From an uncultured Fibrobacterota bacterium (GTDB lineage: Bacteria > Fibrobacterota > Chitinivibrionia > Chitinivibrionales > WJKA01), in contig CAZPUS010000003.1 in the NCBI GenBank assembly GCA_964589825.1, positions 64,275 to 128,274 of the forward strand: a stretch of DNA of 64,000 bases, written 5' to 3'. A model generated the notes under the pieces. It was not told the DNA's origin and searched no databases. It was given only the letters and a program-made list of their open reading frames with translations. Both the position numbers and the translations under genes were made by a program. Positions 31,764 through 56,062 of this stretch are shown in pieces; position 1 is the stretch's first letter; every line of letters begins with the position of its first letter.

Positions 31764-31815
31764 CCTGAACTGAGCAATTGTGTTGATGCAAGATCACGAT
31801 ACAGTAAATTCCCTG
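31764..31815 (+). repeat. Imperfect-palindrome element, left-arm fragment only
   Basis: cctgaactgagcaattgtgttgatgcaag...cagtaaattccct matches the left terminus and first blocks of the 56130 copy (ccctaactgagcaactgctttgatgaaag...cagtgcatccct). The right arm is absent, and the cysC terminator follows. Confidence 0.35.
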
Positions 31816-31819
31816 CCAC

Positions 31820-31849
31820 AAAAAAAAGCCGGCGCAATAATGCGCCGGC
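31820..31849 (-). terminator. Rho-independent terminator of sat-cysC
   Basis: Perfect 9-bp stem gccggcgca / tgcgccggc with loop ataa. The A8 run on + gives U8 after the hairpin on the minus strand. Confidence 0.8.
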
Positions 31850-31905
31850 CGCATACTCATCATTTACACCTCTACACCCGGAATTACGTATTAAAGATTT
31901 GCCTT

Positions 31906-32517
31906 TTACTTTTTCGCAATCACGCCCTTCTCCTCCAGGTGATGCAGTACCTGCTGCGCGCATTCCTGCACAGGTGCGGCAGCGGTATCGATCACCAGCT
32001 CGGGCGAATTCGGCTCTTCGTAGGGGGCGGAAACACCGGTAAACTCCTTGATTTCTCCTGCAAGCGCTTTTTTGTAAAGCCCTTTGGGGTCGCGCTCCTT
32101 GCAGGTCTCGACATCCGCTTTTACATAAATTTCCATGAAGTCACCCGGATCGAGCAACGCACGTGCGGCATCACGATCTTTACGATACGGCGAAATAAAG
32201 GAGGTGAGTACCACCATGCCGGCATCGGCGAAAAGCCCGGCCACTTCACCGATACGCCGTATATTTTCGGTGCGGTCTTCGGGGGAGAAGCCAAGATTTT
32301 TGTTCAGCCCGTGTCTGATATTATCTCCATCAAGACTGTAGACTTTAACCCCTCTGTCAAACAGCAGATGTTCGACTTCTACGGCTATTGTCGATTTACC
32401 GCTGCCCGAAAGGCCGGTAAACCACAGCACCACACCCTTATGATTGTTTTGTTTTTCCCGTTCCTGCTTGCTTACCCGACTCTGATGCCACGTAATATTG
32501 GTCGCTTTCTGCTCCAT
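31906..32517 (-). CDS. cysC: Adenylylsulfate (APS) kinase
   Basis: 203 aa. FTGLSGSGKSTIA and LDGDNIRHGLN. Confidence 0.92.
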   Translation of the reverse strand: MEQKATNITWHQSRVSKQEREKQNNHKGVVLWFTGLSGSGKSTIAVEVEHLLFDRGVKVYSLDGDNIRHGLNKNLGFSPEDRTENIRRIGEVAGLFADAGMVVLTSFISPYRKDRDAARALLDPGDFMEIYVKADVETCKERDPKGLYKKALAGEIKEFTGVSAPYEEPNSPELVIDTAAAPVQECAQQVLHHLEEKGVIAKK

Positions 32518-33663
32518 TTACTTCTCCTCGTTTTGAATCCAGGTTTTAAGTACGTCGGATACTTCCTTACGTGTAAACTCGTCCGGCAGATCTTCATTGT
32601 TACGCAGTTTTTCACGAACCTTTGTACCACTGAGAAACACATGGCAGCTTTTGTCGTGGGGACACGTCTTTGCAGTAACCATCTGTTCACATCTGGTACA
32701 GAAGAATGCATGTTCGAACTTGAGCGGGGTAATCTCGAGCGCACCGTCTTCGAGCTCGTTGAAAATCAGCTGGGCATCGTAGGTACCGTAGTAATTGCCC
32801 ACACCTGCATGGTCACGTCCGATAATCAAATGCGAAATCCCGTAATTCTGACGAATGATGGCATGATGTATCGCTTCACGGGGACCGGCATAGCGCATTG
32901 CCATAGGAAGGATGTTCAGCAATACCCGTTCGGCATTGTAGTAATGCTCGATGATGGTTTTATAACAATCCATACGGGTCTTTGCCGGTATATCACCCGG
33001 TTTGATCTCCCCTACGATGGGATGAATCATAAGCCCGTCAACCATCTCGAGTGCGACCTTTGTCAGGTATTCGTGCGCACGATGGATCGGATTACGCGTC
33101 TGAAACGCGGCAATGGTATCCCAGCCTTTTTCGTTAAAATAGTCGCGTGTCTGCTTTGGGGTCAGAAAATTCTCGGGGAAGCCGGTATCTATATTTTCCA
33201 GTACGATCGATACATCACCGGCTACCGCGTATTTACCCTCTTCGAAAATCTTTTTCACACCGGCGTGTTCCTGGTCCGAGGTGCGATACACATGCATGGC
33301 TTCTTTTTCCAGATCGCGCTGGAAATGCTCCGTTACGGTGCAGATGCCAACCGTGGTGCCGTCACGTCCGGTAAGACGGATTGTATGTCCCGACTCGATC
33401 TCCTCATACTGCTGCGGGGTCACCGAAAGCACGATCGGTACGGCAAAAAGCGTCCCGTTGTCGAGTTTCATCTCGTTTACCACGCGTTCATAATCGGCCT
33501 GTCCCATAAACCCTTTCAGGGGTGAAAACCCGCCGATACCGATCATGAGTGCATCGAACAACTGACGATCCGAAAGCATCAGGGTATGCTGTACCTGCTG
33601 CGCTTCCGCCTCCGGCGCCTTTATCAGACGCTCCACTACGGTGCCGCCATGGGGTTTGACCAT
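32518..33663 (-). CDS. sat: Sulfate adenylyltransferase (homo-oligomeric ATP sulfurylase)
   Basis: 381 aa. FQTRNPIHRAHEYL and IGRDHAGVGNYYG. Abuts cysC with no gap. Confidence 0.92.
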   Translation of the reverse strand: MVKPHGGTVVERLIKAPEAEAQQVQHTLMLSDRQLFDALMIGIGGFSPLKGFMGQADYERVVNEMKLDNGTLFAVPIVLSVTPQQYEEIESGHTIRLTGRDGTTVGICTVTEHFQRDLEKEAMHVYRTSDQEHAGVKKIFEEGKYAVAGDVSIVLENIDTGFPENFLTPKQTRDYFNEKGWDTIAAFQTRNPIHRAHEYLTKVALEMVDGLMIHPIVGEIKPGDIPAKTRMDCYKTIIEHYYNAERVLLNILPMAMRYAGPREAIHHAIIRQNYGISHLIIGRDHAGVGNYYGTYDAQLIFNELEDGALEITPLKFEHAFFCTRCEQMVTAKTCPHDKSCHVFLSGTKVREKLRNNEDLPDEFTRKEVSDVLKTWIQNEEK

Positions 33664-34986: not shown

Positions 34987-35664
34987 TCACTCTTCCGGGG
35001 GCGAGAGAATCCGTTCGCTGTGAAAAATATGCAACGCCCACCTGCAGAAAAGCAGCCCTATCAGTATACACGCTATCTCTATGATCCACAGCGGTATATG
35101 CACCAGGGTAAACAGCATAACAAGTAACGATACAATCCCGAGATTGATAAAATGCATGAGCCGTGGATTGGAAAGAAACGTAGAGAGTGCCGCATCAGCG
35201 CTTGCGGAGAGAAATGCCGCGCTTAAAAAGAGCGTACTCCCGCGGATAACATAGGCCGTTGAATGAGTGTGGCGCATCCCGAGTGCATGCAGCCCGACAT
35301 AGGTAATTAATGAAGAAAAAATACCTGCTGCAGCTACCATAGTGAAAACAAATAGAATCTTTCCTCCAAGAATCTGCCCTCTCGACACTCCGGAAAGAAA
35401 CAGCATCTCGAGCCTTCCACCGATACGTTCGAAAATAAAAACCCTGTTCGCAAAATTCCCGGTAAGCACCACCGAAAAGAGAGTCCACCATATATAGCGA
35501 AGGAAGAACTCATTCGAAAAAAAATTCGTAATACAAACCCCGGAGTAAAGAACCACAACCAGCCCAAAGGCGAAATGAACCGTCACATTGCTGCGGCGAA
35601 ACGCACGCCATTCTTTCGATAGTACTATACCTGTTGCCCTGATTGTTCGATTCCTGTGTTCCAT
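34987..35664 (-). CDS. ABC-2 type transporter permease
   Basis: 225 aa with about 6 hydrophobic spans. The start overlaps the stop of the upstream ABC ATPase by 1 nt. Confidence 0.65.
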   Translation of the reverse strand: MEHRNRTIRATGIVLSKEWRAFRRSNVTVHFAFGLVVVLYSGVCITNFFSNEFFLRYIWWTLFSVVLTGNFANRVFIFERIGGRLEMLFLSGVSRGQILGGKILFVFTMVAAAGIFSSLITYVGLHALGMRHTHSTAYVIRGSTLFLSAAFLSASADAALSTFLSNPRLMHFINLGIVSLLVMLFTLVHIPLWIIEIACILIGLLFCRWALHIFHSERILSPPEE

Positions 35665-36563
35665 TATCGTATCCTCGATGCTATTGCCTGATCAACAGGC
35701 TTGACCTGTGTGATTCCGATGCCGTGCTCCACAAGCACCTTTACGCCATGGGGAATTTGCTGCGCGGGATTGTGTACACGAATACGCCATTCATTATTCG
35801 GATGCCGCACCGGGACATCCTCGCTTATCTGCTGCAGAAACCCGGAAATGTCCGTGTCTGTGGATACACGTATCATCCACTGTTGAGTCTTGTCGGGAAA
35901 AAAAACACGCTCTTCGGCATTGTGCAACAGACCGTTTTCAAGTACCACGATACGATCGCATACTTTTTCAATCACCTCGCTTCGATGAGAACTTATCACT
36001 ATTGTTTTTCCCTGCGTGCGTTTGGTAAGAATCAACTCACGTATCCGTTCGTATTCATTTACATCGAGCGATCGAAACGGTTCGTCGAGTATGCACACCT
36101 GCGGATCGCTCACGAATGCCCTGCACAAACTGCATAGTGTCTTCTGGCCGGCCGAAAGATACTGCGCCTTTTTCTCCATTACCCGGGAAGAAACTCCTTT
36201 CCAGAAGCGGGAAAAATATGCCGCATACGCGTCGTCGGATACCGACTTTGCCTGCGCCCAGAATTCGACATTTTCCCTGAACGTCAAATTACGAATAAGC
36301 CCCGGCTCTTCGAGTACCGCACCGACTTGTTCGTATAAATGCGCACGGTGCTGCCAGGGATTTTCTCCGAAGAGCGATACAGTCCCGTCGTCTGCACGCA
36401 ACAGCCCCAGCATAATACGTATCAGTGTCGACTTGCCTGCGCCATTGAGTCCTGACAACCCGGTGACTTCACCCGGGTGAAGCTGAAGAGAAAGCCCCGC
36501 AAGTACCCGGTGGGATCCAAACGACTTTTGTATGTGTTCCATTGTCACAGGAATCGTACTCAT
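35664..36563 (-). CDS. ABC transporter ATP-binding protein
   Basis: 299 aa. Walker A GLNGAGKST, signature LSAGQK and Walker B ILDEPF. Confidence 0.9.
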   Translation of the reverse strand: MSTIPVTMEHIQKSFGSHRVLAGLSLQLHPGEVTGLSGLNGAGKSTLIRIMLGLLRADDGTVSLFGENPWQHRAHLYEQVGAVLEEPGLIRNLTFRENVEFWAQAKSVSDDAYAAYFSRFWKGVSSRVMEKKAQYLSAGQKTLCSLCRAFVSDPQVCILDEPFRSLDVNEYERIRELILTKRTQGKTIVISSHRSEVIEKVCDRIVVLENGLLHNAEERVFFPDKTQQWMIRVSTDTDISGFLQQISEDVPVRHPNNEWRIRVHNPAQQIPHGVKVLVEHGIGITQVKPVDQAIASRIR

Positions 36564-36671
36564 TACTTCCCTTTTTCAGTTTTTTTTCATTTTCCAAAGG
36601 TGAACAATACCATCGGGACTTGCTGCATCCACTCTCCTATGTCGCATATGCACAGAAAATATACTATTCTC

Positions 36672-36832
36672 TCCTGAACTAAACGATCACTTTGATGAAC
36701 GCCGAAGCAAGCCGTGCTTTTTCGAGTTCCTGATCATGATTAATCGACCTCACATATTGGCATATCATTTCCGGGAATACAAACGCAGTAATAATGGCAG
36801 CGCATTTCGCGAATACGTCATTCAGTACAGGA
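36672..36832 (+). repeat. Imperfect-palindrome intergenic element (161 nt) flanked by a 5-bp direct repeat TTCTC
   Basis: Termini tcctgaact... and ...cagtacagga. Blocks ctttgatgaacgcc, gccgtgc and gcagcgcatttcgcgaat. TTCTC at 36667-36671 and at 36833-36837 abuts both ends. Confidence 0.75.
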
Positions 36833-37069
36833 TTCTCCGTATGCGCAAAAAAATCTTATTTTTATACGTGTCAATGTCCTATTTGCTTTGCTCCATCTTT
36901 ATTCAGTGACACAACGTATTTTTTGACATTCAGCAGTTAAACTGCAAACAGTGCCTGATGCTGTTTCCCCTGACCGGATGGACATGTTGTCAACCCTCTG
37001 CTGCGAGAGAGCAGCAATTGCATACCCCGTCACCCGCTTTTTACATCGAATCGCCACACAAGCACACCC

Positions 37070-38866
37070 ATGAAAGTAATAATCGCACAACATGCAGGGT
37101 TTTGTATGGGGGTAAAGCGTGCAGTCGATCTTGCGATCGATGAATCACGCAAAGCCCGGCGTCCCATCTATACGCTCGGGCCGCTCATCCACAATATACA
37201 GACGCTGGAGCTTTTAACATCAAAAGGTGTATATGATATAAAAGATTGTGATCCTCCGCCTGAACACGCACACATCCTCGTACGCGCACATGGCGTCACC
37301 CCGGAAACGGAAGAGAATTATCGGGAACAGGGCTATACACTTATCGACGGGACATGCCCGAAAGTCAAGACCGTTCACAGGGTGATCGAAAAATACCGGG
37401 AAAAAGGGTATTATATTGTCATTATCGGAGATCGCGGACACGCCGAAGTTGAAGGGCTTCTCGGTTATGCCGGAGGAGAAGGCACGGTTATTTCTCAAGA
37501 AAGCGATATCGAATCGTTACCCGAAAAAGATAAAATATGCGTTGTTTCCCAAACTACCTTCAACAGCTCGGAATTCGATTCGTTAACCGATACACTGCGG
37601 CAACGTCTTCCTGCGGCCGAATTTGTAATAAAAAAAACAATATGTGCCGCTACCAATAAACGACAGGCGGAAATCCGGAACCTCGCCACGCAGGTGGATG
37701 CGCTCGTGGTAGTGGGTGGAAAACACAGTGCGAACACGACGCGTCTGGCCCATATCGGCTGCAAAGCCGGACTGCCGACACAGCACGTAGAGACAGAAAA
37801 AGAACTCGATACAGAAGCCCTCTCTCGCTATTCCACGGTAGGCGTCACGGCCGGTGCCTCGACCCCAAACTGGATGATAAAGCGTGTCGCCGCCACGATC
37901 GGTGCACTCGATACACAATCGCGAAACTACATAAACCGCTTCACACTAAAAGCACTCCATCTGCTTGGCTACTGTAATATATTTATGGCCTTTAGTGCGG
38001 TATGCGCTTCGTTTTTTTCCTGTGTGGTCCAGGACATATTCTTTTTCCAACCCCGCATACTACTAAGTACCGCGGCCATATTCCTCTACTTCTTCTCAAT
38101 GCATTTGTGGAACAGTGTAGCCAATAGTGAAATCACTCAGCATCTTGGTGTCGCGAGATATACTTTTTACAGCAGACATAAACGGCTGCTTCTTTCTTGT
38201 GCAGGCCTAGGTATGGGTCTTTTGCTCCTTCTGAGCAGCATACCGAATCGCGCGGTGTTTTTTCTCATGCTTTTTTCGACAGTAATCGGACTCGCCTATC
38301 ACCTCCCCGTGGTCCCGGCCTTTTTGCGACGAATCATTCCCTATCGCAGCATCAAAGATGTACCTACATCAAAGGATCTTTTTGTGGCACTGGCCTGGGG
38401 TGCAATCATTACATTTATTTTCCAGGCCGGTGCAGATTTTTTCTTCCGTTTCGATATTTACGCAGCATCCGTATTTTTGATCCTGTTTTTCTATTCATAC
38501 ATCCGTTCTTTGCTTATGGACCTGCGGGATATAGAAGGAGACCGGATTATGGGACGTGAAACACTCATTACCCTTATAGGAGAAAAAAGGGCGCTCAGCG
38601 TCATCTATGTAATGCTGTTTTTCATAATTCTCGTATGCTGTCTCCCCGGTCTTTTTTCACTCTTGCACCACGGCAACCTTCGTTCGACCGACTACATATT
38701 GCTTCTGCAACTGCCGGGAGTCGCCTTCATAAAATTGATTATCGATCGAAAGGCCTATCGAACCATCGATGATCCTTCGATATTCAATTTGCTATGCAAT
38801 GCTCAGTTTTTTATTGTCGGTATACTTGCTCTTACAGGGTACATGGTACTACAAAGTATAGCCTGA
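37070..38866 (+). CDS. ispH: Fusion: 4-hydroxy-3-methylbut-2-enyl diphosphate reductase (IspH) + C-terminal 9-TM UbiA-like prenyltransferase domain
   Basis: 598 aa. Residues 1-~285 are IspH (GFCMGVKRA, DGTCPKV, ICAATNKRQ, GGKHSANT). The remainder has ~9 TM helices with a UbiA-type second Asp-rich motif LMDLRDIEGDRIMGRETL. The first NDxxDxxxD motif is not recognisable (WNSVANSEITQH). Confidence 0.85.
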   Translation: MKVIIAQHAGFCMGVKRAVDLAIDESRKARRPIYTLGPLIHNIQTLELLTSKGVYDIKDCDPPPEHAHILVRAHGVTPETEENYREQGYTLIDGTCPKVKTVHRVIEKYREKGYYIVIIGDRGHAEVEGLLGYAGGEGTVISQESDIESLPEKDKICVVSQTTFNSSEFDSLTDTLRQRLPAAEFVIKKTICAATNKRQAEIRNLATQVDALVVVGGKHSANTTRLAHIGCKAGLPTQHVETEKELDTEALSRYSTVGVTAGASTPNWMIKRVAATIGALDTQSRNYINRFTLKALHLLGYCNIFMAFSAVCASFFSCVVQDIFFFQPRILLSTAAIFLYFFSMHLWNSVANSEITQHLGVARYTFYSRHKRLLLSCAGLGMGLLLLLSSIPNRAVFFLMLFSTVIGLAYHLPVVPAFLRRIIPYRSIKDVPTSKDLFVALAWGAIITFIFQAGADFFFRFDIYAASVFLILFFYSYIRSLLMDLRDIEGDRIMGRETLITLIGEKRALSVIYVMLFFIILVCCLPGLFSLLHHGNLRSTDYILLLQLPGVAFIKLIIDRKAYRTIDDPSIFNLLCNAQFFIVGILALTGYMVLQSIA

Positions 38867-39003: not shown

Positions 39004-39789
39004 TTACAGCACCACACTCACCACAATAAAGTTTGAGACCAGAATAAGAACCGAAGCCCCGACAACCGCACGGTTGGTCGCTTTTCCCACGCCCGTGGCG
39101 CCACCGGTGGTAATATAGCCGAAATAACATCCGGTAAGAGTAATAATCCCGCCGAATACAAACGCCTTAATCATACACACAATTACATCGTTGATACTGA
39201 ACAGCATCTTTATGCCGTTGTAAAAAGTCGCGTTGCTCACCCCGAGTCCCACATTCGCGATAAGTTGTGATGTTACGATCGCGAGAAACGATGAGTAAAT
39301 AACCAGTACCGGCATCATGATAAATCCGGCAAGTACCCGGGGGGCGAGAAGGTAGAGAAACGGATCCAGATACAGTACCTCCATGGCATCTATCTGATCG
39401 GTTACCCGCATCGATCCAAGCTCGGAGGCGAGCATGGCGCTTACACGACCGGTGATTACCAGACCGGTAAGCACGGGTCCCAGATCGACGAGTATCGCCT
39501 TGCCTACAGCTGCGCCGAGATAGGTGTAGGGTATGATAAAGGAAAAAAAGTACTGCGCCTGCCAGACGGTAATAATGCCGATAAAGACCGAAATGAGGGA
39601 TATAAGCGGCAGGGATCGTACACCGATACGCATGGATTGTTCAAAAAGCAGATAGTACCTCGTTCCATACGAAGGAAGTACTCGCATTACACGAAGGAAG
39701 AAAAGCATGAGACTTCCCACACGTTCCACCGCCTCCCGTATTGTTCGCCCCGTGGATTCCGCGGTCTCATCGATCAGGCGTGCAATCAT
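39004..39789 (-). CDS. mlaE: MlaE-family ABC transporter permease
   Basis: 261 aa. YLGAAVGKAILVDLGPVLTGLVITGRVSAMLASELGSMRVTDQIDAMEV is the MlaE/Ttg2B signature. Confidence 0.88.
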   Translation of the reverse strand: MIARLIDETAESTGRTIREAVERVGSLMLFFLRVMRVLPSYGTRYYLLFEQSMRIGVRSLPLISLISVFIGIITVWQAQYFFSFIIPYTYLGAAVGKAILVDLGPVLTGLVITGRVSAMLASELGSMRVTDQIDAMEVLYLDPFLYLLAPRVLAGFIMMPVLVIYSSFLAIVTSQLIANVGLGVSNATFYNGIKMLFSINDVIVCMIKAFVFGGIITLTGCYFGYITTGGATGVGKATNRAVVGASVLILVSNFIVVSVVL

Positions 39790-41003
39790 TATGTATCGCT
39801 CTCTTCTTCCATACAGGCCTCACGTTTCTCTTCAATAAACTGCAAAATAGTAAAAAACACCAGCCGATACGGAAACTTCCATACCATTACCAGTACGGGT
39901 CGGGTCATTTGAAACAACGATGTAGACAGACTCATGGATGCAGATATCGATATATCCGTTGTTTCGAAATCGGGGATATATTCGATATTGAATCTCCGCA
40001 GGTGATACATCCCGCAGGCATGTTGTAAAGCCCCCATTGCCCCTGCCATCATTCCGGTGGTGTCCGGCCCCCCGCACCGACCACACACCCGCAGATAAAA
40101 ATGACCGAATCCTAAAATACCTATCCCCGAGGCCACCGATGCAATGATCCACCTAAGAAGCTGCGCTCTCGTATCCGGCTGCTGCGCAATAGCCAACAGA
40201 TACTCCCCTGCCGAGCTGTGACGCACTATATACCAGCGTCCGCATTTACTCTTCTTTTTATTGTTACCTTCCCTTTCTTTGTCGTGTAAATGCTCCTGGT
40301 CGGTTTCAACTCCGTGTGCGGCCTCCTCCTGCTGTTGTGCGGTTTCCGCAGAGCCTTCTACGTCATCCGCATCTTTGGAGCCCGAATCCTCCAATGCCGA
40401 CGCATGCTCATGTGGCGGCCGATCAATTCGTTCATCTTCGTTGCTCCCGGAATTGAGAAGGGAATCGTCGCTTTGCTCCCTATCCGGTCCCTGCGGCGGT
40501 CGATGAGCAGAAACTTCATCCTGATTCCTCTCTTCCGGCTCTTCTGCCATATGAGAGGCTTCTTCGCGACCAACGACGCTACCCCTGTTCTCATCCCTGT
40601 TTGTTTTTTCTCCTTCTCCATTGCGCTGCGCTGAAAAATGGGTCGGTATCTTTTGTTCTGTATGCGGGGGCTGCTCTGCGTGGCTTTCGACGTTATGCAT
40701 TGACGGCGAATCCATATGAGCTTCGGTTGTTCTCCGCTCTTGCTTATTTCCCTCTCCATCATCTTCAGCTGTACGGGGGATTGTAAACCGTGACAGAATG
40801 ACGAAACGAAAACCATCACCGCCGGGTGCATATGACCATGACAAGACGACCGGGTGTATCCAGAAACCCTGCAGCGTGTTCCACCGTCCATGCGAATATT
40901 CGACGCATGCCTTAAACGGAGAAAAATAAAGAAGCAGCAGGAACCCGCACACAAGCATTGCCACCACCCCGATAATAAATAGTATCCACATGATAAATGA
41001 CAT
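39789..41003 (-). CDS. Hypothetical membrane protein with a long acidic disordered linker
   Basis: 404 aa. N-terminal TM (WILFIIGVVAMLVCGFLLLLYF), a ~180-aa E/D/Q-rich low-complexity region and a C-terminal globular part (GGPDTTGMMAGAMGAL). Overlaps the mlaE start by 1 nt. Confidence 0.55.
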   Translation of the reverse strand: MSFIMWILFIIGVVAMLVCGFLLLLYFSPFKACVEYSHGRWNTLQGFWIHPVVLSWSYAPGGDGFRFVILSRFTIPRTAEDDGEGNKQERRTTEAHMDSPSMHNVESHAEQPPHTEQKIPTHFSAQRNGEGEKTNRDENRGSVVGREEASHMAEEPEERNQDEVSAHRPPQGPDREQSDDSLLNSGSNEDERIDRPPHEHASALEDSGSKDADDVEGSAETAQQQEEAAHGVETDQEHLHDKEREGNNKKKSKCGRWYIVRHSSAGEYLLAIAQQPDTRAQLLRWIIASVASGIGILGFGHFYLRVCGRCGGPDTTGMMAGAMGALQHACGMYHLRRFNIEYIPDFETTDISISASMSLSTSLFQMTRPVLVMVWKFPYRLVFFTILQFIEEKREACMEEESDT

Positions 41004-41256: not shown

Positions 41257-42108
41257 CTATCCGGCCGGTAAAGACGCCCGGCTGTCGGCACCCATAATCT
41301 TCCCGTCTTCAGTGATCACCTCATCCATCGTGATATCGGTATAAGGGTCACGGGGCAGCGGTGACCGGGAAATCTGACACCCGAAGGCAACCCCCAGCAG
41401 TGGTATTCTTCCCTTGAGCTCCTCCAGAAAACTGTCATAATAATGTTTGCCCCGTCCAAGACGTCCTCCTTGTGCGTCAAACGCAACACCCGGACACAGC
41501 ACCAGGTCAAGATCGCTCTTGAGAAAATTGCCTTGTAAATGATCGAGCGGCTCCTGTATACCATACGTACATGTATGACAGTCACAGGTGATATCCGCGA
41601 CCTCCGCTATAACCAGCTCACAGCGATCTTCTTTACAGCACGGCAAAATTGTTCGCTTCCCGTCTGCCTTCATCTGTACGATCAACGCAGCGAGATCCAC
41701 CTCGTCCGCAAGCGCCATATAGACCATTATTGCCCGCGCATCACGGTAAAATGAGGTGTGCGCCACATGCCGACATATGGATGCCGACTTTGCCTGACGC
41801 TGGTCGTGAGACAATTCGGCGCGACGTCTGGAATAATACGCCCTCGATGTTTTTTTGCGTGCGGCCAGATCGTTATGGCTGGTGTCACGGACAACGTCAC
41901 GGGTGCTTTCTTTTACGCTGTGTATCGATTCATTTACCGGTTCAGTGATGTTCGACAGCTCCTCCCGCATCTGATCGCTGTAATACCGCGCTTTGGCGAA
42001 AAGCCTTCCGGCGGTTCGGATAAAGCGAGGCAGTTCTTTTGAACCGAAAAACAGAAGAAGAAGAATAAAAACAACGAGAAGTTCCGGAAAACCTACGCCG
42101 GTAATCAT
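41257..42108 (-). CDS. Fusion: TatA/TatB-family N-terminal module + 5-formyltetrahydrofolate cyclo-ligase
   Basis: 283 aa. The N-terminus MITGVGFPELLVVFILLLLFFGSKELPRFIRTAGRLFAKAR is a TatB-like TM plus amphipathic helix. The C-terminal ~190 aa is 5-FCL (VYMALADEVDL, GVAFDAQGGRLGRGKHYYDSFL). There is no internal Met before the 5-FCL part. 4-nt overlap with tatC. Confidence 0.8.
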   Translation of the reverse strand: MITGVGFPELLVVFILLLLFFGSKELPRFIRTAGRLFAKARYYSDQMREELSNITEPVNESIHSVKESTRDVVRDTSHNDLAARKKTSRAYYSRRRAELSHDQRQAKSASICRHVAHTSFYRDARAIMVYMALADEVDLAALIVQMKADGKRTILPCCKEDRCELVIAEVADITCDCHTCTYGIQEPLDHLQGNFLKSDLDLVLCPGVAFDAQGGRLGRGKHYYDSFLEELKGRIPLLGVAFGCQISRSPLPRDPYTDITMDEVITEDGKIMGADSRASLPAG

Positions 42109-42884
42109 TTATGGCCTCCCCCCTCTGTTTCCCGTTCTGGTCTCTTGTCTGATTTTTGGCCTGAGTTTTGCGCCGCAGCCATCGATATGAGAATACTTAC
42201 CCCATACAAGACAAGAAGGGGCGCGGCAAGAAACAGCTGAGATATGACATCGGGCGGCGTAATGAATGCAGCAAGTATAAAGAATATAACAAATGCATAT
42301 TTAAATTTTTTTACCAGAAAACGAGTGGAAATCACTCCCATTCTGGTAAGTACGAACGATATAACCGGCAGCTCGAATACGAGGCCGAACGCGAGTACGA
42401 TCTTGAGTAAAAAACCGATATACTCATTTGCACGAAAATAGGGCTCAAGGGATCCTGACGCATATCCCGCAAGAAATTTCATTACGTATGGCAGCATCAG
42501 ATAGCTGAATGCGGCACCCAGAAGAAAGCACATGGTCGATGCAATCGCAACCGGGGCAACGATTACTTTTTCACGCTTGTACAATCCAGGCCCGATAAAT
42601 TTCCACACCTGCCAGGATATCATCGGTACCGCAATGATGATACCTCCCGCAACCGCGATTTTAATACTGAGAAGCACCCCTTCTGCCGGTGCGGTAAAAA
42701 TGATCCTGGGTCTGGGTTCCGATATCCTGAGGGGATAGATCATCAGCAGATCGAAGATTTTTCGCCACCATATCCCGCATGGAATCGCACCAGCGATTAC
42801 CGCGGCTATCGACGCGATCATGCGCCACCGTAATTCTTCCAGATGCTGTAAAAACGGCATTTCCCTGTCGGCGTCTTCTGCCAT
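42105..42884 (-). CDS. tatC: Twin-arginine translocase subunit TatC
   Basis: 259 aa. MPFLQHLEELRWRMI with a 6-TM pattern. Confidence 0.92.
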   Translation of the reverse strand: MAEDADREMPFLQHLEELRWRMIASIAAVIAGAIPCGIWWRKIFDLLMIYPLRISEPRPRIIFTAPAEGVLLSIKIAVAGGIIIAVPMISWQVWKFIGPGLYKREKVIVAPVAIASTMCFLLGAAFSYLMLPYVMKFLAGYASGSLEPYFRANEYIGFLLKIVLAFGLVFELPVISFVLTRMGVISTRFLVKKFKYAFVIFFILAAFITPPDVISQLFLAAPLLVLYGVSILISMAAAQNSGQKSDKRPERETEGGGHK

Positions 42885-47561: not shown

Positions 47562-49436
47562 TTATTCTTTAACGATCTGTTCGTTAAATGCATAATAAAT
47601 GACATTGGTCACCCATTTAAGCGCTGCTTGCTGACGTGAATCCTTTTTGCCCATTTTGGCCAGCCAGGCTTTCTCTTTATATCCTTCGGTATACAGAATG
47701 GCCGCACGCCCTTTAAATGAATACCCGAAGACCCCTTTTTCAAGGTAGGGCAGATCGCGTGCGTCGACAGATCCTGATGAGGGCACGTTATCGATATTGT
47801 AGTATGAAGAAAAAACAGGATGTTTGGGGTTCTTGCGCGGCAACTTTCTCAAGTGACTCACAAAGAAACCGCCCGTCTTTTTACAAAGTCCCGCTTCTAT
47901 CTGATACACATAAAAACCGCTTTCCACCGGATTTCCATTATTATCCACCGCATACCATTTGTAGTGCTTGTTTTTCTTCAGGTAAGGACGTGGTGCCATT
48001 TCGTAAAGTGTATCGGTATATACAACGGCACCTCGTTTATTGTTGACAGTAATCATCACATCAGTATAGGTCGGCAGAATCATGGGGAAAAAAGTCCATG
48101 GATGAAAGACCTCCGGGACCGGATCGCGCAAGACATAACCCGATACTTCGCTGTCGTCCTGCTGCAGTTTCTCGAGCGTGGCCTGACCGGTACTGTCCGG
48201 GGCCCCGGTCTCTTCAATAATATCACGTATCAGCCCTCGCATACGCACGCACACATTCTCATTATGCGTATTGATAAAATAGATAAAACCACCATGATGG
48301 ATATACGTACGCAGAAAACGCATATTCTGCTCCGACAGGCTTTTGGGCACACCGTGTGCCGAACAGAAAAGAATACGCTGACGCATAATTTCGGATATTC
48401 GAAAAAATTCATATATTCCCTCCAGCTCCCTGCCAGTGGGCCTTTGCGTTTCCCACAACAGCATGAACGACTGCTCCGCGCGTGCGACATAGGCTTTGCG
48501 CCAGTCATCGAGCGGAAAACTCTTTTCAATGGTCTCAATCCAGTTTCCCTCTTCCACCGTCATTCTCGTATCGAAACGAATGCGGAAATAATCGCTCATT
48601 ATTTTTCTTATACGACGTTTAAAAACCTGATACTTGCGTGCACTTATAAACGCAAGTGCATCCGCGACAAGATTGAGGCAGTCGATTTCTGGTTTAAGAC
48701 GTGAAACTTCCCTGGTTTCGGTCGACAAGGTTCTGTCGAGTCCGATCTCATACCATGAGGAAAAGCTCTTGTATCTTCCTACCATGGAAACCGCGCGGCT
48801 GCCGAGTTTGATTTTAAGCGTGGTATTGGTCGAAATATAATCGGCTATATTCTCCAGTTCTCCGTCACTCCACTCTTTTTCCGGATCGTCGCCAGCACTT
48901 CCGGGCAGAAGAAGCGTGGTTATCTCCGCTTTCCCCGAAAGACGCTTGCCGCTTCCCACGATATTGCCTTTACGAAACGAAAAATCGTTCATTCCGATGT
49001 CGAAATCCATATTCATCGAAATGTTGACCGTGGCCAGCTGGGACTGTGATACCACGGCCGCCATCTGATCCGATCCCGCCGCATGCATGGATGGCGCAAC
49101 CGATATGGCGTTGGCATTTGAGGAAAAATTGCGAAACATCGAGGCATCGAACGATTGATCCAGATCGGGATTTGCGGCGATATTGTCGACATTTATATCC
49201 ACATCTATTTTCGGCGGGGCCTCTATATCCGCTTTAGGAGGCGGTGGCGGTTCGGGAGGAGGAGGCGGTTCGGTTACCACTTCGACCGCTTTCATTATCT
49301 TGTCCTTAATTATCTTGTCCGCACCTGTCACACGAAGAAGCAGAAACGCGAGTACATGCGCCCCGACAGTCACAAGCAGAGCAATTCGTGTTATTTTTCG
49401 CTGTTTTCGTCTTTTTTCGGTAATTGCTGATGGCAT
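47562..49436 (-). CDS. Membrane-anchored protein: TonB-like Pro-rich N-terminus, large periplasmic region with a DUF4159-like C-terminus
   Basis: 624 aa. TM ALLVTVGAHVLAFLLL, then PPPPPEPPPPPK. C-terminal pattern LRTYIHHGGFIYF...GRAAILYTEGYKEKAW...VTNVIYYAF. The family assignment is from memory only. Confidence 0.55.
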   Translation of the reverse strand: MPSAITEKRRKQRKITRIALLVTVGAHVLAFLLLRVTGADKIIKDKIMKAVEVVTEPPPPPEPPPPPKADIEAPPKIDVDINVDNIAANPDLDQSFDASMFRNFSSNANAISVAPSMHAAGSDQMAAVVSQSQLATVNISMNMDFDIGMNDFSFRKGNIVGSGKRLSGKAEITTLLLPGSAGDDPEKEWSDGELENIADYISTNTTLKIKLGSRAVSMVGRYKSFSSWYEIGLDRTLSTETREVSRLKPEIDCLNLVADALAFISARKYQVFKRRIRKIMSDYFRIRFDTRMTVEEGNWIETIEKSFPLDDWRKAYVARAEQSFMLLWETQRPTGRELEGIYEFFRISEIMRQRILFCSAHGVPKSLSEQNMRFLRTYIHHGGFIYFINTHNENVCVRMRGLIRDIIEETGAPDSTGQATLEKLQQDDSEVSGYVLRDPVPEVFHPWTFFPMILPTYTDVMITVNNKRGAVVYTDTLYEMAPRPYLKKNKHYKWYAVDNNGNPVESGFYVYQIEAGLCKKTGGFFVSHLRKLPRKNPKHPVFSSYYNIDNVPSSGSVDARDLPYLEKGVFGYSFKGRAAILYTEGYKEKAWLAKMGKKDSRQQAALKWVTNVIYYAFNEQIVKE

Positions 49437-52807: not shown

Positions 52808-55800
52808 ATGTCAGACAAAGAAAAAAAACCGTTCAGACTGGGAGACATCCTTTCAAGGCTTAAGAAAGACGGAAGCCTTGACGACGTATCGGAGGGGGCA
52901 ACGGATAACGATGAACACCGTGCCGAGACCGGCCATTCCGGCCTTTTTTCTTCACCCGGATCGATGTCCGCACTGCACAATTCACCAAAAGACGATTCTC
53001 TTCCTGCACAACCGGTATTCGGTACCCCCCGGGCACGAAATGAAGCGCAATCGGTTCCTCGACAGGAAAAAAACGAACCGCCTTCGAGCTTCGCTTCGTC
53101 AGATGACAATAATACCTCCGGAAATGAGAGAGCCTCTTCGGGTACGGTTCCCCCTTCTCCTCCTCCACCACCGGGCGGATCCGGATCGGACGGGGGCAAT
53201 TACTTCCAGGGCGGCGCATCATTTTCCGAAAACGATGATGAAGAAGAATTCGACATATACCGCTACCTGAGCGTCATTCTTCGCCGCAAGTGGCTCATTG
53301 CCGCCTGTGCGATCATCGCCGGGCTTTACAGCCTTTACAACTTCTCAACCGCAGAAAAGCACTATATTGCACGGGCGCGACTTCTTTTTACCCCCGGTTA
53401 CAGACAGCTTATCAATGACGATGCTATGATGTGGCAATTATGGGGCAGCAGAGAAATCCGTCTCAATACCCATCTGGAATTACTGAAAAGCAACAGACAG
53501 GTTCTCGAAAGTGTTTCGGATAAACTTGGCGAAAACGTCTCTCCCACAACCATAAAAGCGGGAATCACTGTCCATCGCGGCGGTGGCAAGGATGATGACA
53601 GCGAAAACAACATCATTGTTCTTACATTACAACACAACCATCCGGATACTGCGCAGCTGATACTCAATACACTGTGCAGAGAATACATGCGCTATATAAG
53701 CGAAGTGAATGCGCGCGATCTCACTTCCACAATTATTAAACTGCAAACCCAGATAAACAAGATAAAAAACGACCTCAGCGATAAAGAAAACAAGCTGCGG
53801 GCATTTAAGGAAAATAATGAACTGGTTGAGCTCAATAGTGCGACAAACACCATTATATCGAAACTCTCCAATATGGAATCGAATCTGCAAAACACGAGGA
53901 TCGATCTGAAATCGAATCGTGATAAGATTAAATCGGTAACGCAGGAAATGACACAAAACGACATGAAGGTAGTAGGAAATATAACATATGAAGATCCCTA
54001 CCGCAATCGTCTTTCCGAACTTGAATTCGATCTCAACAACCTGCTTACCGAATATAGTCCCGACCATTACAAGGTACGTATGGTCAAGGATAAAATCGAA
54101 AAAATGAAGGAGATCATTCGCTCCGATATCGAAACAAAGATCGCACGAAAAAAAACATATGTAAACAACCCTATTCAACAAACGCTTCGTCAGCAATACA
54201 TCGATCTCAATCTGGCGATTACGGCGCTGGAGTCCAAACGCAAGGCCCAGGAACAGATCGTCGAACAGCTGAATCGCAAGCTACAGTCTCTGCCTGCACT
54301 GCAGCAGGAATATGCGCGTCTTCAACGCAATACCAGCTCACTCGAAAAAACACTCCGCAAGCTTCAGGACAAATACGAAACCCTAAAGATCAAGCGGGAT
54401 TCGCAGGAATCCGATCTCAAGATTCTCGAGCTTGCAAAAGTGCCACAAACCGCATATTCCGACATGAGCGTGTCACGGATACCGCTCGGAATTATAATCG
54501 GACTGATTATCGGAATTGCACTCGCATTTGTGTGGGAATACCTCGATCAGACGATCAAGGATCCCCAGGAAGTAGAAAAGTCCACCGGGCTTCCTCTACT
54601 TGGGCTCATTCCCTATTATGAAAACGACGAATCACCGATACTTCATGGCGATCTCACAAAAGATAAGACAAAACTCGAACCCTACCGCGCGCTCAGAACC
54701 AGCCTTAAACACATTTTTTCCACACACCATATCCAGAGTCTCCTGGTCTGCAGTGCAGTAAAAGGCGAAGGGAAAACCACTATCGCGATTAATCTCGCGA
54801 TTTCGTTTGCCCTTGACGGCAGGAAGGTGATTATTGTAGACGGCGATCTGCGTCGTCCGAGTCTGCACGGTTTTTTTCATATTCCCTCTCCGTCAAAAGG
54901 TCTTACGCATTGCCTGCAGGGCAGCGCCACGATTCAGGACGTAATAACCCCTACCAACATACCCAATCTCTACTGCGTAACGGCCGGAGAACGGGTTGCC
55001 GACAGTGCCGAGTTACTCGGCTCCGCTCATCTTTCCACGTTGATATCGAGTCTTAAAGAGCATTCTCAGCTGGTGATTTTTGATTCTCCTGCGCTCGTCC
55101 CAATCAGCGATTCAATTACCATCGCCGCATCAATGGATGCGACTATTTATGTATTACGTGCGCTGTGGACCCCACGAAAAGCAACGCTGCAGTCCAGAAA
55201 TCAGCTTAGTCAGGTCGGAAGCAATATTATTGGAGCGGTGCTCAACGGACTCTCCCCTGCAAGCGGCTACTATCCGTACTACTACGGCTATTATCGCTAC
55301 TATTCTTACAAATACGCCTATGAAGAGGACGAACCCGCACCCCGTCATTCAATCCGCCGGTTCGGATTGGGCCTTGAAAAAAAAGCCAGAGAGGGACTCC
55401 ATATGCTCAAGCTTTCACTCCCCTCTTTTTTCAGCAGAATGGGAACTTTTTTTTCACACCTGGGTCGCAGCACATTATTCTGGATTCTGCTCGTGCTCTT
55501 TGTCGGCCTTGCCGTTGCCTCCGGCCTTATCTCCTCCAGACGTGCTCACAAGCAGAAAACCATCAAGGCGGCCGATATCTCCTACCGTGGTTCTGTCGCA
55601 CAATCGGCCGAATCCGTCTCTGGATCTTCCGCTCGGAGTAACACCCCTCATACACCAATAACAATTGAAAAAGAACAAACCTCATCCTACGGGGTCTCCT
55701 CCTCGGATATAGAGGCACTGCATCGGGCAGTCCAGCAAAGAGACAGTGCATTTTTTTCCGGGGATTTCTCGGAATACCGGCGTTATTACGACCGGGATGA

Positions 55801-56062
55801 ATTCTCTTTTCCGGGAGGAGGATACACCGAATGGCAGGCCAAAATGCGTCACTTTTTTAACAGCCGTCTCCCGGCCTATACAATACCGCAACCGGATTCA
55901 AACAGGATTTCACCCGCATCGTCACAGCGCTATATATCCAGAACCACTCTCGTAGTAACGGGTCCTGACAACGATACGACTCGTGCCGACTTCATCTCCC
56001 TGTGGCACACAACCCCCGCAGGATGGAAGATTATCAAGGAAAAACGCCGCTTTGATCGATAG
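52808..56062 (+). CDS. Wzc-like polysaccharide co-polymerase / BY-tyrosine kinase with an extra C-terminal TM + NTF2-like extension
   Basis: 1084 aa. Disordered N-terminus, Wzz domain, long coiled coil and a second TM. Kinase motifs are Walker A SAVKGEGKTT, A' VIIVDGDLRRP and B VIFDSPA. Tyr cluster GYYPYYYGYYRYYSYKYAY (nt 55264-55323), followed by ~260 further residues including a TM (LFWILLVLFVGLAVASGLI). Confidence 0.85.
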   Translation: MSDKEKKPFRLGDILSRLKKDGSLDDVSEGATDNDEHRAETGHSGLFSSPGSMSALHNSPKDDSLPAQPVFGTPRARNEAQSVPRQEKNEPPSSFASSDDNNTSGNERASSGTVPPSPPPPPGGSGSDGGNYFQGGASFSENDDEEEFDIYRYLSVILRRKWLIAACAIIAGLYSLYNFSTAEKHYIARARLLFTPGYRQLINDDAMMWQLWGSREIRLNTHLELLKSNRQVLESVSDKLGENVSPTTIKAGITVHRGGGKDDDSENNIIVLTLQHNHPDTAQLILNTLCREYMRYISEVNARDLTSTIIKLQTQINKIKNDLSDKENKLRAFKENNELVELNSATNTIISKLSNMESNLQNTRIDLKSNRDKIKSVTQEMTQNDMKVVGNITYEDPYRNRLSELEFDLNNLLTEYSPDHYKVRMVKDKIEKMKEIIRSDIETKIARKKTYVNNPIQQTLRQQYIDLNLAITALESKRKAQEQIVEQLNRKLQSLPALQQEYARLQRNTSSLEKTLRKLQDKYETLKIKRDSQESDLKILELAKVPQTAYSDMSVSRIPLGIIIGLIIGIALAFVWEYLDQTIKDPQEVEKSTGLPLLGLIPYYENDESPILHGDLTKDKTKLEPYRALRTSLKHIFSTHHIQSLLVCSAVKGEGKTTIAINLAISFALDGRKVIIVDGDLRRPSLHGFFHIPSPSKGLTHCLQGSATIQDVITPTNIPNLYCVTAGERVADSAELLGSAHLSTLISSLKEHSQLVIFDSPALVPISDSITIAASMDATIYVLRALWTPRKATLQSRNQLSQVGSNIIGAVLNGLSPASGYYPYYYGYYRYYSYKYAYEEDEPAPRHSIRRFGLGLEKKAREGLHMLKLSLPSFFSRMGTFFSHLGRSTLFWILLVLFVGLAVASGLISSRRAHKQKTIKAADISYRGSVAQSAESVSGSSARSNTPHTPITIEKEQTSSYGVSSSDIEALHRAVQQRDSAFFSGDFSEYRRYYDRDEFSFPGGGYTEWQAKMRHFFNSRLPAYTIPQPDSNRISPASSQRYISRTTLVVTGPDNDTTRADFISLWHTTPAGWKIIKEKRRFDR

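Follow-up and report, generated by a model that had tools for sequence, protein, structure and literature searches.

A fusion of IspH with a UbiA-like membrane domain and a degenerate first Asp-rich motif in an uncultured Fibrobacterota bacterium

The enzyme IspH is essential and a target for drugs, and its covalent union with a membrane protein in hundreds of anaerobes has posed a question since 2015, when Rao, O'Dowd, Li, Wang and Oldfield reported 47 IspH-UbiA 'Rosetta stone' fusions in Chem Sci (PMC4746011). These were described as 'all in sulfate-reducing bacteria' and as carrying 'two DXXXD repeats', their UbiA part was placed in the CDD family PT_UbiA_5, and the full-length fusion protein could not be expressed (PMC4746011). 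The membrane half can be compared with UbiA enzymes of solved structure. The equivalent cavity in AfUbiA binds DMAPP and GPP (4TQ3/4TQ4). The Asn and the first Asp of its first Asp-rich motif (motif 1) hold the diphosphate-bridging Mg2+; GPP binding is lost with the exchanges D72A and N68A, and corresponding mutants of MenA are dead (PMC4106721). Here we describe an IspH-UbiA fusion encoded in a stretch of 64,000 nucleotides from an uncultured Fibrobacterota bacterium; this whole stretch is referred to as the window.

The fusion gene and its IspH half

A preliminary description of the locus, made from the sequence, had read the gene as a complete IspH running without a stop into a UbiA-like domain of about nine transmembrane (TM) helices, and had suggested comparing it with PF02401 and PF01040. 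Both halves of the 598-aa open reading frame (LYTB and UbiA) did exceed the Pfam gathering thresholds. The features of the locus are collected in Table 1.

It might be objected that an error of sequencing or assembly, hiding a stop near nt 37930, had merged adjacent ispH and ubiA-like genes, a possibility which the preliminary description itself had raised. Uninterrupted full-length orthologues of the fusion were found, however, in about 70 independently assembled genomes, mostly of Fibrobacterota and altogether from several phyla, always in the same continuous frame and with a conserved linker. The layout was shared by most of the best 150 family representatives, and an IspH-UbiA fusion is already in print (PMC4746011). 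Because the unbroken frame recurs in about 70 independently assembled genomes, the fusion is not an artefact: the probability of such an error is vanishingly small, and we regard it as virtually certain that the gene encodes a genuine single polypeptide belonging to the published IspH-UbiA class. By the same token the novelty implied at first was overstated. The exact 598-aa protein was not found in a collection of 15 billion proteins, and no genome in the species genome collection searched was more than 54% identical to it; the source lineage was placed as a deep branch of the Fibrobacterota.

Table 1. Features of the ispH-ubiA-like locus (nucleotide positions in the window)
Feature	Position	Strand	Basis
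ABC-2-type permease, 225 aa, partner of the ATPase	34987..35664	-	homologues at related loci
ABC ATPase (DrrA/GldA/NodI-like), divergent neighbour	35664..36563	-	PF00005, NCBIfam matches
Divergent intergenic region, 506 bp, between ABC operon and ispH-ubiA	36564..37069	.	no features found
ispH-ubiA-like fusion gene	37070..38866	+	single ATG-to-stop ORF, 598 codons + stop, 598 aa
IspH (LytB) domain, residues 1-282	37070..37915	+	PF02401, TIGR00216, alignment to A. aeolicus/E. coli IspH, fold
IspH cluster cysteines	C12 37103-37105; C96 37355-37357; C192 37643-37645	+	
Linker with amphipathic pre-TM helix, residues 283-303	37916..37978	+	AlphaFold helices, hydropathy, conservation
UbiA-fold membrane domain, residues 304-598, nine TM	37979..38863	+	PF01040, fold, topology, dN/dS
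First Asp-rich motif site, residues 347-363 (W-N-S-V-A-N-S-E-I-T-Q-H-L-G-V-A-R)	38108..38158	+	hhalign, clade alignments
Conserved TM4-TM5 cytoplasmic loop, residues 410-443	38297..38398	+	Fibrobacterota near-invariance
Second Asp-rich motif and cap loop, residues 484-498 (DLRDIEGDRIMGRET)	38519..38563	+	clade alignments

The IspH half was as complete as had been proposed. PF02401 matched residues 3-277 over profile positions 1-266 of 267 (E 2.7e-89, 299.5 bits versus 24.5), and TIGR00216 (NCBIfam) gave 289.4 bits against a cut-off of 187.85. In the alignment C12 (GFCMG), C96 (GTCPKV) and C192 (ICAAT) correspond to C12, C96 and C197 of E. coli IspH, and these three cluster cysteines were kept in all fused homologues in which the region was present. 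Likewise H41, H74, H124, E126, T162/T163, S220/N222 and S264 align with H41, H74, H124, E126, T167/T168, S225/N227 and S269 of the E. coli enzyme. Foldseek recovered the trefoil alpha/beta fold of IspH with TMt values of 0.77-0.86 to 3DNF, 3KE8 and 3F7T. Judged by its residues, the N-terminal part is an IspH with everything needed for HMBPP reduction.

No second ispH was detected in the 64-kb window or in 80 related loci. In the IspH tree fused and stand-alone forms interleave. Complete ispH genes of 283-285 aa without the membrane domain occur in sister lineages, where the domain appears to have been lost. Since the two forms interleave in this way and the gene is surrounded by others of housekeeping function, we infer that the fused IspH is probably active and the housekeeping IspH of the cell. 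Relatives share the antisense open reading frames that lie inside the fusion gene (37220-37918, minus strand); these were dismissed, their recurrence stemming only from the conservation of the sense gene.

Membrane fold, topology and the two Asp-rich motifs

In the AlphaFold model (mean pLDDT 84, pTM 0.71) the IspH fold is followed by nine TM helices, the number first estimated from hydrophobicity. Helices at 267-284 and 287-301 lead into the membrane domain; the linker has a mean hydropathy of 0.37 and ends in a near-invariant N303. With 14 Lys and Arg residues inside and 2 outside, the N-terminus is placed in the cytoplasm. IspH is thus on the cytoplasmic face, which is also that of the three conserved UbiA cap loops, so that the IspH site and the UbiA site lie on one face.

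The model, which the preliminary description had recommended making, matched structures of both IspH and UbiA in the fold search. For the membrane domain Foldseek gave a TMt of 0.76 to ApUbiA (4OD4) and of 0.65-0.71 to AfUbiA (4TQ3/4TQ4/4TQ5); DGGGP synthase and the UBIAD1-HMGCR complex 8DJK were also among the matches. The link to the UbiA structures was made through this fold search only, the family profile of the membrane domain having no sequence-level match among all PDB chains at E <= 1. PF01040 matched residues 374-545 with 46.0 bits (gathering threshold 34.2), a match which spans only profile positions 71-220 of 250 and leaves motif 1 uncovered; in the common type of fusion it extends over positions 8-232. 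The NCBIfam equivalog PRK13591 gave 30.6 bits, below its cut-off of 238. Assignment as a bacterial DGGGP synthase, of the 'archaeal lipid' type of the FCB group, was rejected (PRK12882, 33.6 bits versus a cut-off of 296), and a paper on archaeal-lipid synthesis in the FCB group mentions neither IspH nor the membrane-domain family.

When hhalign was used to align the domain with archaeal relatives whose motif is a canonical N-K-L-T-D-M-D-E-D (99.9%, E 7.6e-32), motif 1 fell at HLWNSVANSEITQH. What is left of it is the Asn, N348, together with the Arg that follows, R363; N352 and T356 occupy the first and second Asp positions. Hhalign and the clade alignments thus agree that NDxxDxxxD is absent from the protein, in line with the early remark that no first motif could be recognised in the TM2-3 loop. 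In Fibrobacterota a clade-specific string, W-N-S-x-x-S-x-E-x-x-Q-H, stands in for it, W347, N348, S349, H358, R363 and Y364 being near-invariant in the clade. The position equivalent to D72 of AfUbiA, Asn (N352) in this protein, is Ser in most of the clade. Neither is the peculiarity confined to Fibrobacterota: about 35% of the fused representatives in other phyla have no acid at the D72-equivalent position, and the full NxxxDxxxD was found in only 3 of 89 fused representatives. By their aligned sequences, then, degeneracy of motif 1 is family-wide among the fused representatives.

The second motif, also noticed at the outset, is exact (D484-L-R-D487-I-E-G-D491-RIMGRET); all 17 aligned sequences carry it unchanged, as do essentially all orthologues from Fibrobacterota. 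Canonical two-metal chemistry is nevertheless unlikely, because the D72 equivalent is replaced and D72A and N68A of AfUbiA abolish GPP binding. For the family as a whole the scarcity of the full motif, together with the third or so of other-phylum representatives without the acid, argues against classical ionisation as the conserved function.

Conservation, family spread and possible functions

Between pairs of orthologues the dN/dS of the membrane domain was 0.02-0.15, compared with 0.04-0.18 for IspH, which means purifying selection as strong as that on IspH. Mean pairwise identity was 51% for the membrane domain and 63.5% for IspH. Positions without variation are concentrated in cytoplasmic loops 2-3, 4-5 and 6-7. 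In the TM4-TM5 loop Y410, H411, K429, D430, P432, S434, K435 and W443 are near-invariant in the Fibrobacterota clade. Of 124 family representatives, 122 have kept Y410; K/R435 and the final Asp of motif 2 are present without exception, and G495, E497 and T498 with hardly any. Because dN/dS equals that of IspH and conservation is concentrated on the cytoplasmic cap loops, the reading of the domain as an anchor derived from a degenerate enzyme, offered in the preliminary description, is disfavoured.

The same data bear on a more general version of this idea, in which the domain does nothing except hold IspH at the membrane, for instance beside membrane-bound ferredoxin- or flavodoxin-reducing complexes or polyprenyl consumers, and its conserved residues serve folding or oligomerisation instead of ligand chemistry. 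The lost aspartates of motif 1 and the dispensability of the domain in sister lineages speak for such a tether, as do the anaerobic life of every host and the sensitivity of IspH, an Fe-S enzyme, to oxygen (PMC4746011). However, a passive anchor would hardly match IspH in dN/dS, the mean frequency of the top residue peaks in the TM6-7 loop (94%) and not in the lipid-facing helices (47-60% for TM3 and TM7-9), and a string of 16 invariant residues, DLRDIEGDRIMGRETL, is hard to reconcile with it. We consider a tether and nothing more improbable. That the domain is functional and binds a ligand we think quite likely from the pattern of conserved residues.

A search with the membrane-domain profile, run exhaustively, gave 454 matches below 1e-10. 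Most of the best 150 representatives are 560-595 aa long, their UbiA part spanning roughly residues 290-575. A survey across taxa had been called for at the outset; it placed the roughly 70 fusion-bearing genomes mostly in Fibrobacterota (Chitinispirillia/Chitinivibrionia), with others in Planctomycetota, Sumerlaeota and Muiribacteriota. No bacterial stand-alone form of the membrane domain was evident among the representatives listed, 'short' ones starting with the tail of IspH and hence being fragments of fusions. As far as these listed sequences indicate, bacterial members of the UbiA subfamily in question occur almost only fused to IspH.

The best reading of these observations is that a domain still able to bind a ligand holds the housekeeping IspH at the inner face of the membrane; this domain would be either an atypical one-metal prenyltransferase or a sensor of isoprenoid diphosphate. 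The explanation we favour, tentatively and at somewhat less than even chances, is the former. N348, R363, Y410, K429/K435 and D484/D487/D491 are kept and probably form a working isoprenoid-diphosphate site, in which motif 2 would hold one Mg2+ through D484, D487 and D491 and conserved Ser, Glu and His would replace the aspartates of motif 1. IspH would release IPP and DMAPP beside the mouth of the UbiA-fold cavity, and the domain might then act on a short prenyl diphosphate and a membrane acceptor. Prenyl transfer as such, taken apart from the rest of the scheme, we also rate as a possibility falling a little short of evens. Substrate may be channelled from IspH to the membrane domain, as the preliminary description suggested; Rao et al. 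(2015) had voiced the same speculation, on channelling and on localisation (PMC4746011).

In Fibrobacterota the product of such a transfer may be handled by a divergently encoded ABC-2 exporter. A divergent homologue of the ATPase was present at 43 of the 49 Fibrobacterota loci with enough upstream DNA, and the permease had a homologue at 35 of 46 loci (10 of 13 members weakly match ABC2_membrane_3); the exporter pair is a conserved neighbour in this phylum. The intergenic region contained no notable repeats or small open reading frames and no more promoter or terminator predictions than shuffled sequences, and neither it nor the fusion gene matched Rfam. No conserved context was found in Planctomycetota, Sumerlaeota and Muiribacteriota, where the neighbours are unrelated housekeeping genes only (glycerate kinase, RelA/SpoT, MutL, AraC regulator). 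Besides the degeneracy of motif 1, other observations go against the prenyltransferase: no acceptor-pathway or isoprenoid genes lie near the fusion gene, and sister lineages have dispensed with the domain, with no bacterial stand-alone copy evident among the representatives listed.

The absence of linked acceptor-pathway genes would be expected if no prenyl transfer were left and the domain bound isoprenoid diphosphate or polyprenyl phosphate in order to signal its occupancy to the fused IspH, so placing the last MEP step under feedback, in a bacterial in-cis counterpart of UBIAD1. A sensor would also fit the degeneracy of motif 1 across the fused family beside an otherwise preserved diphosphate site, the near-restriction of the bacterial subfamily to IspH fusions among the representatives listed, and the gain or loss of the domain with no obvious stand-alone replacement. 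There is a precedent in UBIAD1, a GGPP sensor bound to HMGCR (PMC9579336, PMC9314443), and the archaeal stand-alone relatives adjoin a FilR1-type transcription regulator at three loci. On the other hand, no purely non-catalytic member of the UbiA family is known, UBIAD1 itself still being an enzyme. The invariant aspartates of motif 2 and the G-R-E-T are what catalysis predicts, the AfUbiA data suggest that losing the D72 equivalent would impair not just catalysis but binding too (PMC4106721), and communication between the domains found no support in this analysis. For this protein a sensor is rather unlikely. More doubtful again is the general proposition that IspH-UbiA fusions carry, in place of a prenyltransferase, a UbiA-fold membrane sensor of isoprenoid diphosphate or polyprenyl phosphate that gates IspH. 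If it were true, the fusions would place a feedback valve on the last MEP step as a bacterial in-cis analogue of UBIAD1-HMGCR, and the recurrent loss of the motif-1 Asp would mark a change of role.

The gene in the window opens no new category on its own. Its family shows that the residue serving the diphosphate-bridging Mg2+ in canonical UbiA enzymes is dispensable across much of the fusion family, which narrows the hypotheses to an unusual one-metal prenyl transfer or a sensing or regulatory role and supplies natural motif-1 variants for experiments.

Relation to known systems

The protein shares with the class of Rao et al. (2015) an N-terminal IspH and a C-terminal UbiA-like domain of about nine TM helices in some 575-600 aa, anaerobic hosts, and a homologous membrane domain, the family profile retrieving hundreds of such fusions. 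It differs in that its host belongs to the Fibrobacterota and is not a sulfate reducer, and in possessing motif 2 only, where two DXXXD repeats were stated. The fusions outside sulfate reducers, represented by the roughly 70 orthologues in Fibrobacterota, Planctomycetota and other phyla, the family-wide degeneracy of motif 1 and the ABC-2 pair of Fibrobacterota go beyond that report.

With AfUbiA (4TQ3/4TQ4), ApUbiA (4OD4/4OD5) and DGGGP synthase (6M31/7BPU) the membrane domain has in common the nine-TM fold (TMt 0.62-0.76), the cytoplasmic cap loops, motif 2, the Asn of motif 1, the Arg following it, and the Tyr and Lys of the central loop. Unlike these enzymes it has no D72 equivalent and is fused to a soluble Fe-S enzyme. 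Its closest non-fused relatives are archaeal stand-alone UbiA-like proteins near PRK13591 (Thermococcus, Methanoxibalbensis; 117-124 bits versus the cut-off of 238), which have the same DLRDIEGD string in motif 2 but are unfused, are about 305 aa long and keep the canonical NxxxDxxxD.

Two further systems are related in architecture. The IspH-RPS1 fusions of Clostridia and Fusobacteria (NF000907) are also two-part proteins of anaerobes with IspH at the N-terminus, although the partner consists of ribosomal protein S1 repeats and is not a membrane domain; the IspH half described here matches NF000907 over residues 1-285, the score of the whole protein being 319 against a cut-off of 624. In the complex of UBIAD1 with HMG-CoA reductase (8DJK) a UbiA-fold membrane protein is again physically linked with an enzyme that makes isoprenoid precursors, and it reads an isoprenoid diphosphate (PMC9579336). 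That system, however, is eukaryotic, belongs to the mevalonate pathway, is non-covalent and controls degradation, and UBIAD1 is an active catalyst with both Asp motifs in place; the likeness of the complex to the fusion is one of analogy only.

The fusion gene and its distribution

The ispH-ubiA-like gene is a single ATG-to-stop ORF of 598 codons. The preliminary description saw in its first half a complete IspH with three cluster cysteines, and this was borne out: Pfam LYTB matched residues 3-277 (E 2.7e-89), the NCBIfam IspH equivalog TIGR00216 was passed with 289 bits (cut-off 188), and alignment with the IspH proteins of E. coli and Aquifex identified the cluster cysteines as C12, C96 and C192. 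H41, H74, H124, E126, T162/T163, S220/N222 and S264 align to substrate-site residues of E. coli IspH, and the N-terminal half of the AlphaFold model matched IspH structures in Foldseek (TMt 0.77-0.86). The protein is an IspH member on all testable criteria, and we infer that this half is a working housekeeping enzyme.

It might be suspected that a sequencing error has hidden a stop and joined two genes, as the preliminary description allowed. The recurrence of the same fusion among relatives excludes this, and we give such an artefact practically no credence. The C-terminal domain as query retrieved 47 relatives (36-48% identity); many of them have both Pfam domains and carry names of Chitinispirillaceae, Chitinivibrionales or Fibrobacter MAG proteins. 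Scanning a single genome for each species gave 80 loci: about 65 were Fibrobacterota with full-length fusions (44-54% identity), further fusions came from Planctomycetota, Sumerlaeota and Muiribacteriota, and the rest were stand-alone UbiA-like genes of Thermococcus and other archaea. Exhaustive HMMER comparison of the domain profile with 1.84 billion representatives gave 1116 matches (454 below 1e-10). The best 150 of these were mostly 560-595 aa long with the domain at about 290-575, so most of them are fused proteins. 'Short' bacterial representatives mostly start in the IspH tail (TAGASTPNW..., MI.RVV...) and are pieces of fusion proteins; those relatives inspected that clearly stand alone were of the archaeal type with canonical motif 1. 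The survey across taxa that had been proposed shows the fusion to be frequent in Fibrobacterota and to extend to several further anaerobic phyla, a wider host range than published.

In a neighbour-joining tree of the IspH domain, which carries no support values and whose sampling is biased towards query relatives, fused and stand-alone IspH interleave. The window sequence clusters with the complete stand-alone ispH genes of two loci, L081 and L082, both followed by a HIT-family gene; this grouping implies that the membrane domain was lost or never acquired in close relatives. Taken at face value, the tree indicates that the membrane domain was repeatedly gained or lost and that fused IspH and ordinary housekeeping IspH are orthologues. 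Neither the 64-kb window nor any of the 80 loci contained a second ispH.

The membrane domain and its Asp-rich motifs

As had been expected, the protein matched PF01040 as well as PF02401: UbiA aligned to residues 374-545 with 46 bits (gathering 34.2), covering only profile positions 71-220 of 250. Two NCBIfam archaeal prenyltransferase models, PRK12882 (33.6 bits, cut-off 296) and PRK13591 (30.6 bits, cut-off 238), matched the C-terminal half weakly. Membership of the curated UbiA equivalogs (PRK13591, DGGGP synthase and others) is excluded by scores far below their cut-offs. The AlphaFold model, made from a 17-sequence alignment (mean pLDDT 84, pTM 0.71), predicts an IspH fold, two linker helices and then nine TM helices, the number the preliminary description had estimated from hydrophobicity. 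Its C-terminal half resembled ApUbiA (4OD4, TMt 0.76) and also matched AfUbiA, DGGGP synthase, Rv3806c-type PRTase and UBIAD1 in Foldseek. With IspH set as cytoplasmic, the loops hold 14 K+R inside and 2 outside, which puts the UbiA active-site cap (loops 2-3, 4-5 and 6-7) on the IspH side of the membrane; the two presumed sites both point into the cytoplasm. By profile and fold the domain belongs to the UbiA superfamily, but it lacks an intact first motif.

Motif 2 reads D484-L-R-D487-I-E-G-D491, followed by R-I-M-G-R-E-T, exactly as first recognised. Motif 1 was located by profile-profile comparison of Fibrobacterota C-terminal domains with stand-alone archaeal relatives, which bear the textbook N-K-L-T-D-M-D-E-D (probability 99.9%, E 7.6e-32, 289 columns). 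The earlier failure to recognise it proved correct residue by residue: the motif Asn (N348) and a trailing Arg (R363) are shared with the rest of the clade, the second Asp is Thr throughout (T356), and the first is N352 here and Ser in the others. N352 and a 4-residue insertion in TM2 set apart the window protein, an outlier whose membrane domain is 38.5% identical to those of the other Fibrobacterota, compared with 51% among them. The exact protein is absent from a collection of 15 billion, which places the window in a deep, poorly sampled Fibrobacterota lineage.

In Fibrobacterota the motif-1 replacement is itself conserved (S-M-Y-L-W-N-S-x-x-S-x-E-x-x-Q-H-x-G-x-x-R-Y-x-F-Y). The Asn is found in 81 of 89 fused representatives, an acid at +4 in 58 and at +8 in 20, and complete N..D..D in just 3; degeneracy of motif 1 is family-wide among fusions, which goes beyond Rao et al. 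2015. Y410 (122/124), K/R435 (all) and the last motif-2 Asp (all) are near-invariant across the family, and G495, E497 and T498 essentially invariant among its representatives. In AfUbiA, N68 (the Asn) and D72 (the first Asp) hold the diphosphate-bridging Mg2+; N68A and D72A abolish GPP binding, whereas motif-2 mutants bind GPP only 21- to 45-fold more weakly, and the equivalent MenA mutants of N68A and D72A are inactive (PMC4106721). The residue missing from the window protein is therefore the least dispensable one in canonical enzymes. One polypeptide carries both an intact IspH and a UbiA-fold domain, and its motif-1 aspartates have been lost.

Gene neighbourhood

An ABC pair lies divergent from the fusion gene. 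Among those of the Fibrobacterota loci (L001-L070) that have enough upstream DNA, the ATPase was present in 43 of 49 and the permease in 35 of 46, mostly 10-500 bp from the fusion gene. The pair was absent beside the stand-alone ispH of the close relative L081, and outside Fibrobacterota the fusion neighbours were unrelated housekeeping genes. The window region is ordinary chromosome, encoding LepA, signal peptidase, TrpB/TrpA, prephenate dehydrogenase, an EPSP-synthase-like protein, phosphofructokinase, a hybrid histidine kinase, a Ser/Thr kinase, flagellin, sulfate adenylyltransferase, MoxR, MlaE, TatC, SpoU, ApbE and polysaccharide-export proteins. It held no isoprenoid, quinone or ether-lipid genes, and the 506-bp upstream intergenic region gave no Rfam match and showed nothing notable.

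Features of the window and of compared loci
Feature	Position	Strand	Remarks
ispH-ubiA-like fusion gene	37070..38866	+	
ABC ATPase (DrrA/GldA/NodI-like) and 225-aa ABC-2-type permease	34987-36563	-	
Sulfate adenylyltransferase	32518-33663	-	518 bits
581-aa ORF	31780-33525	+	no family match; probably spurious
5-formyltetrahydrofolate cyclo-ligase ORF region	41257-42884	-	283 aa; overlaps tatC end by 4 bp
ORF	39789-41003	-	404 aa; no Pfam or NCBIfam match
ORF	47562-49436	-	624 aa; no Pfam match
ORF	15038-15775	+	245 aa; no Pfam match
Two large proteins	61338-63947 and 52808-56062	+	one coiled-coil-rich, 869 aa; other 1084 aa with AAA_31 segment
Complete stand-alone ispH	L081 5001-5852, L082 180-1037 (GCA_024449705.1)		283, 285 aa; 52-56% identical to window IspH domain
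Archaeal stand-alone relatives (Thermococcus, Methanoxibalbensis)	L072 4917-6807, L074 4944-6810, L075 3495-6465		canonical motif 1

The sulfate adenylyltransferase gene overlaps the 581-aa ORF. Residues 4-34 of the cyclo-ligase ORF weakly resemble TatA/TatB, below gathering; this could reflect a mis-called start, a merged small tatA or a real fusion. The 404-aa ORF abuts mlaE and could encode an unrecognised Mla or lipid-transport partner. The two large proteins adjoin polysaccharide-export genes (Poly_export/SLBB, ParA-like ATPases, LytR_cpsA_psr, YkuD), together resembling an exopolysaccharide or envelope locus. In the three archaeal loci a FilR1-type HTH regulator (PF08350 and PF25213) directly precedes the UbiA-like gene on the same strand, in L075 as two in tandem, which looks like a conserved pair.

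Possible function and relation to described fusions

For 11 informative orthologue pairs dN/dS was 0.02-0.15 in the membrane domain and 0.04-0.18 in IspH. Mean pairwise identities are 51% for the membrane domain and 63.5% for IspH. Invariant positions cluster in the cytoplasmic loops (loop 6-7 at 94%), and purifying selection on the domain is strong and focused on the cap. Of the two roles first suggested, a decayed anchor is disfavoured by the low dN/dS and this loop conservation, while channelling is possible. That the domain is purely a tether seems improbable, and we rank this third.

The cavity probably still binds a phosphorylated isoprenoid through N348, R363, Y410, K429/K435 and a single motif-2 metal site. 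Ranked first among the readings, though tentatively, is atypical one-metal prenyl transfer to a membrane acceptor; in Fibrobacterota the product may be handled by the ABC-2 exporter. The motif-2 triad and the catalytic Tyr and Lys are all fully conserved, as catalysis would predict, which favours prenyl transfer. Variant metal sites occur among isoprenoid enzymes. The family-wide decay of motif 1, the near-restriction of the bacterial domain to IspH fusions and its repeated loss speak for a non-catalytic sensor or regulator of IspH, for which a precedent is UBIAD1, which senses GGPP while bound to HMG-CoA reductase (PMC9579336, PMC9314443). We rank this second, as less probable than prenyl transfer.

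Rao et al. 2015 described IspH-UbiA proteins, 47 in number and 'all in sulfate-reducing bacteria'. They assigned the UbiA part to CDD PT_UbiA_5, of unknown function, and saw in it 'two DXXXD repeats'; in their proposal the protein is localised to the membrane and supplies IPP/DMAPP there, and expression of the full-length protein failed (PMC4746011). In the literature searched, a single further paper touches on the fusion, with one passing mention. Our finding sharpens, without answering, the 11-year-old question of its role. By architecture and homology the window protein is of the same class, but the stated 'two DXXXD' feature is absent from it; the kind of fusion is already known, and what is new here is the clade-specific replacement of motif 1 and the host range.
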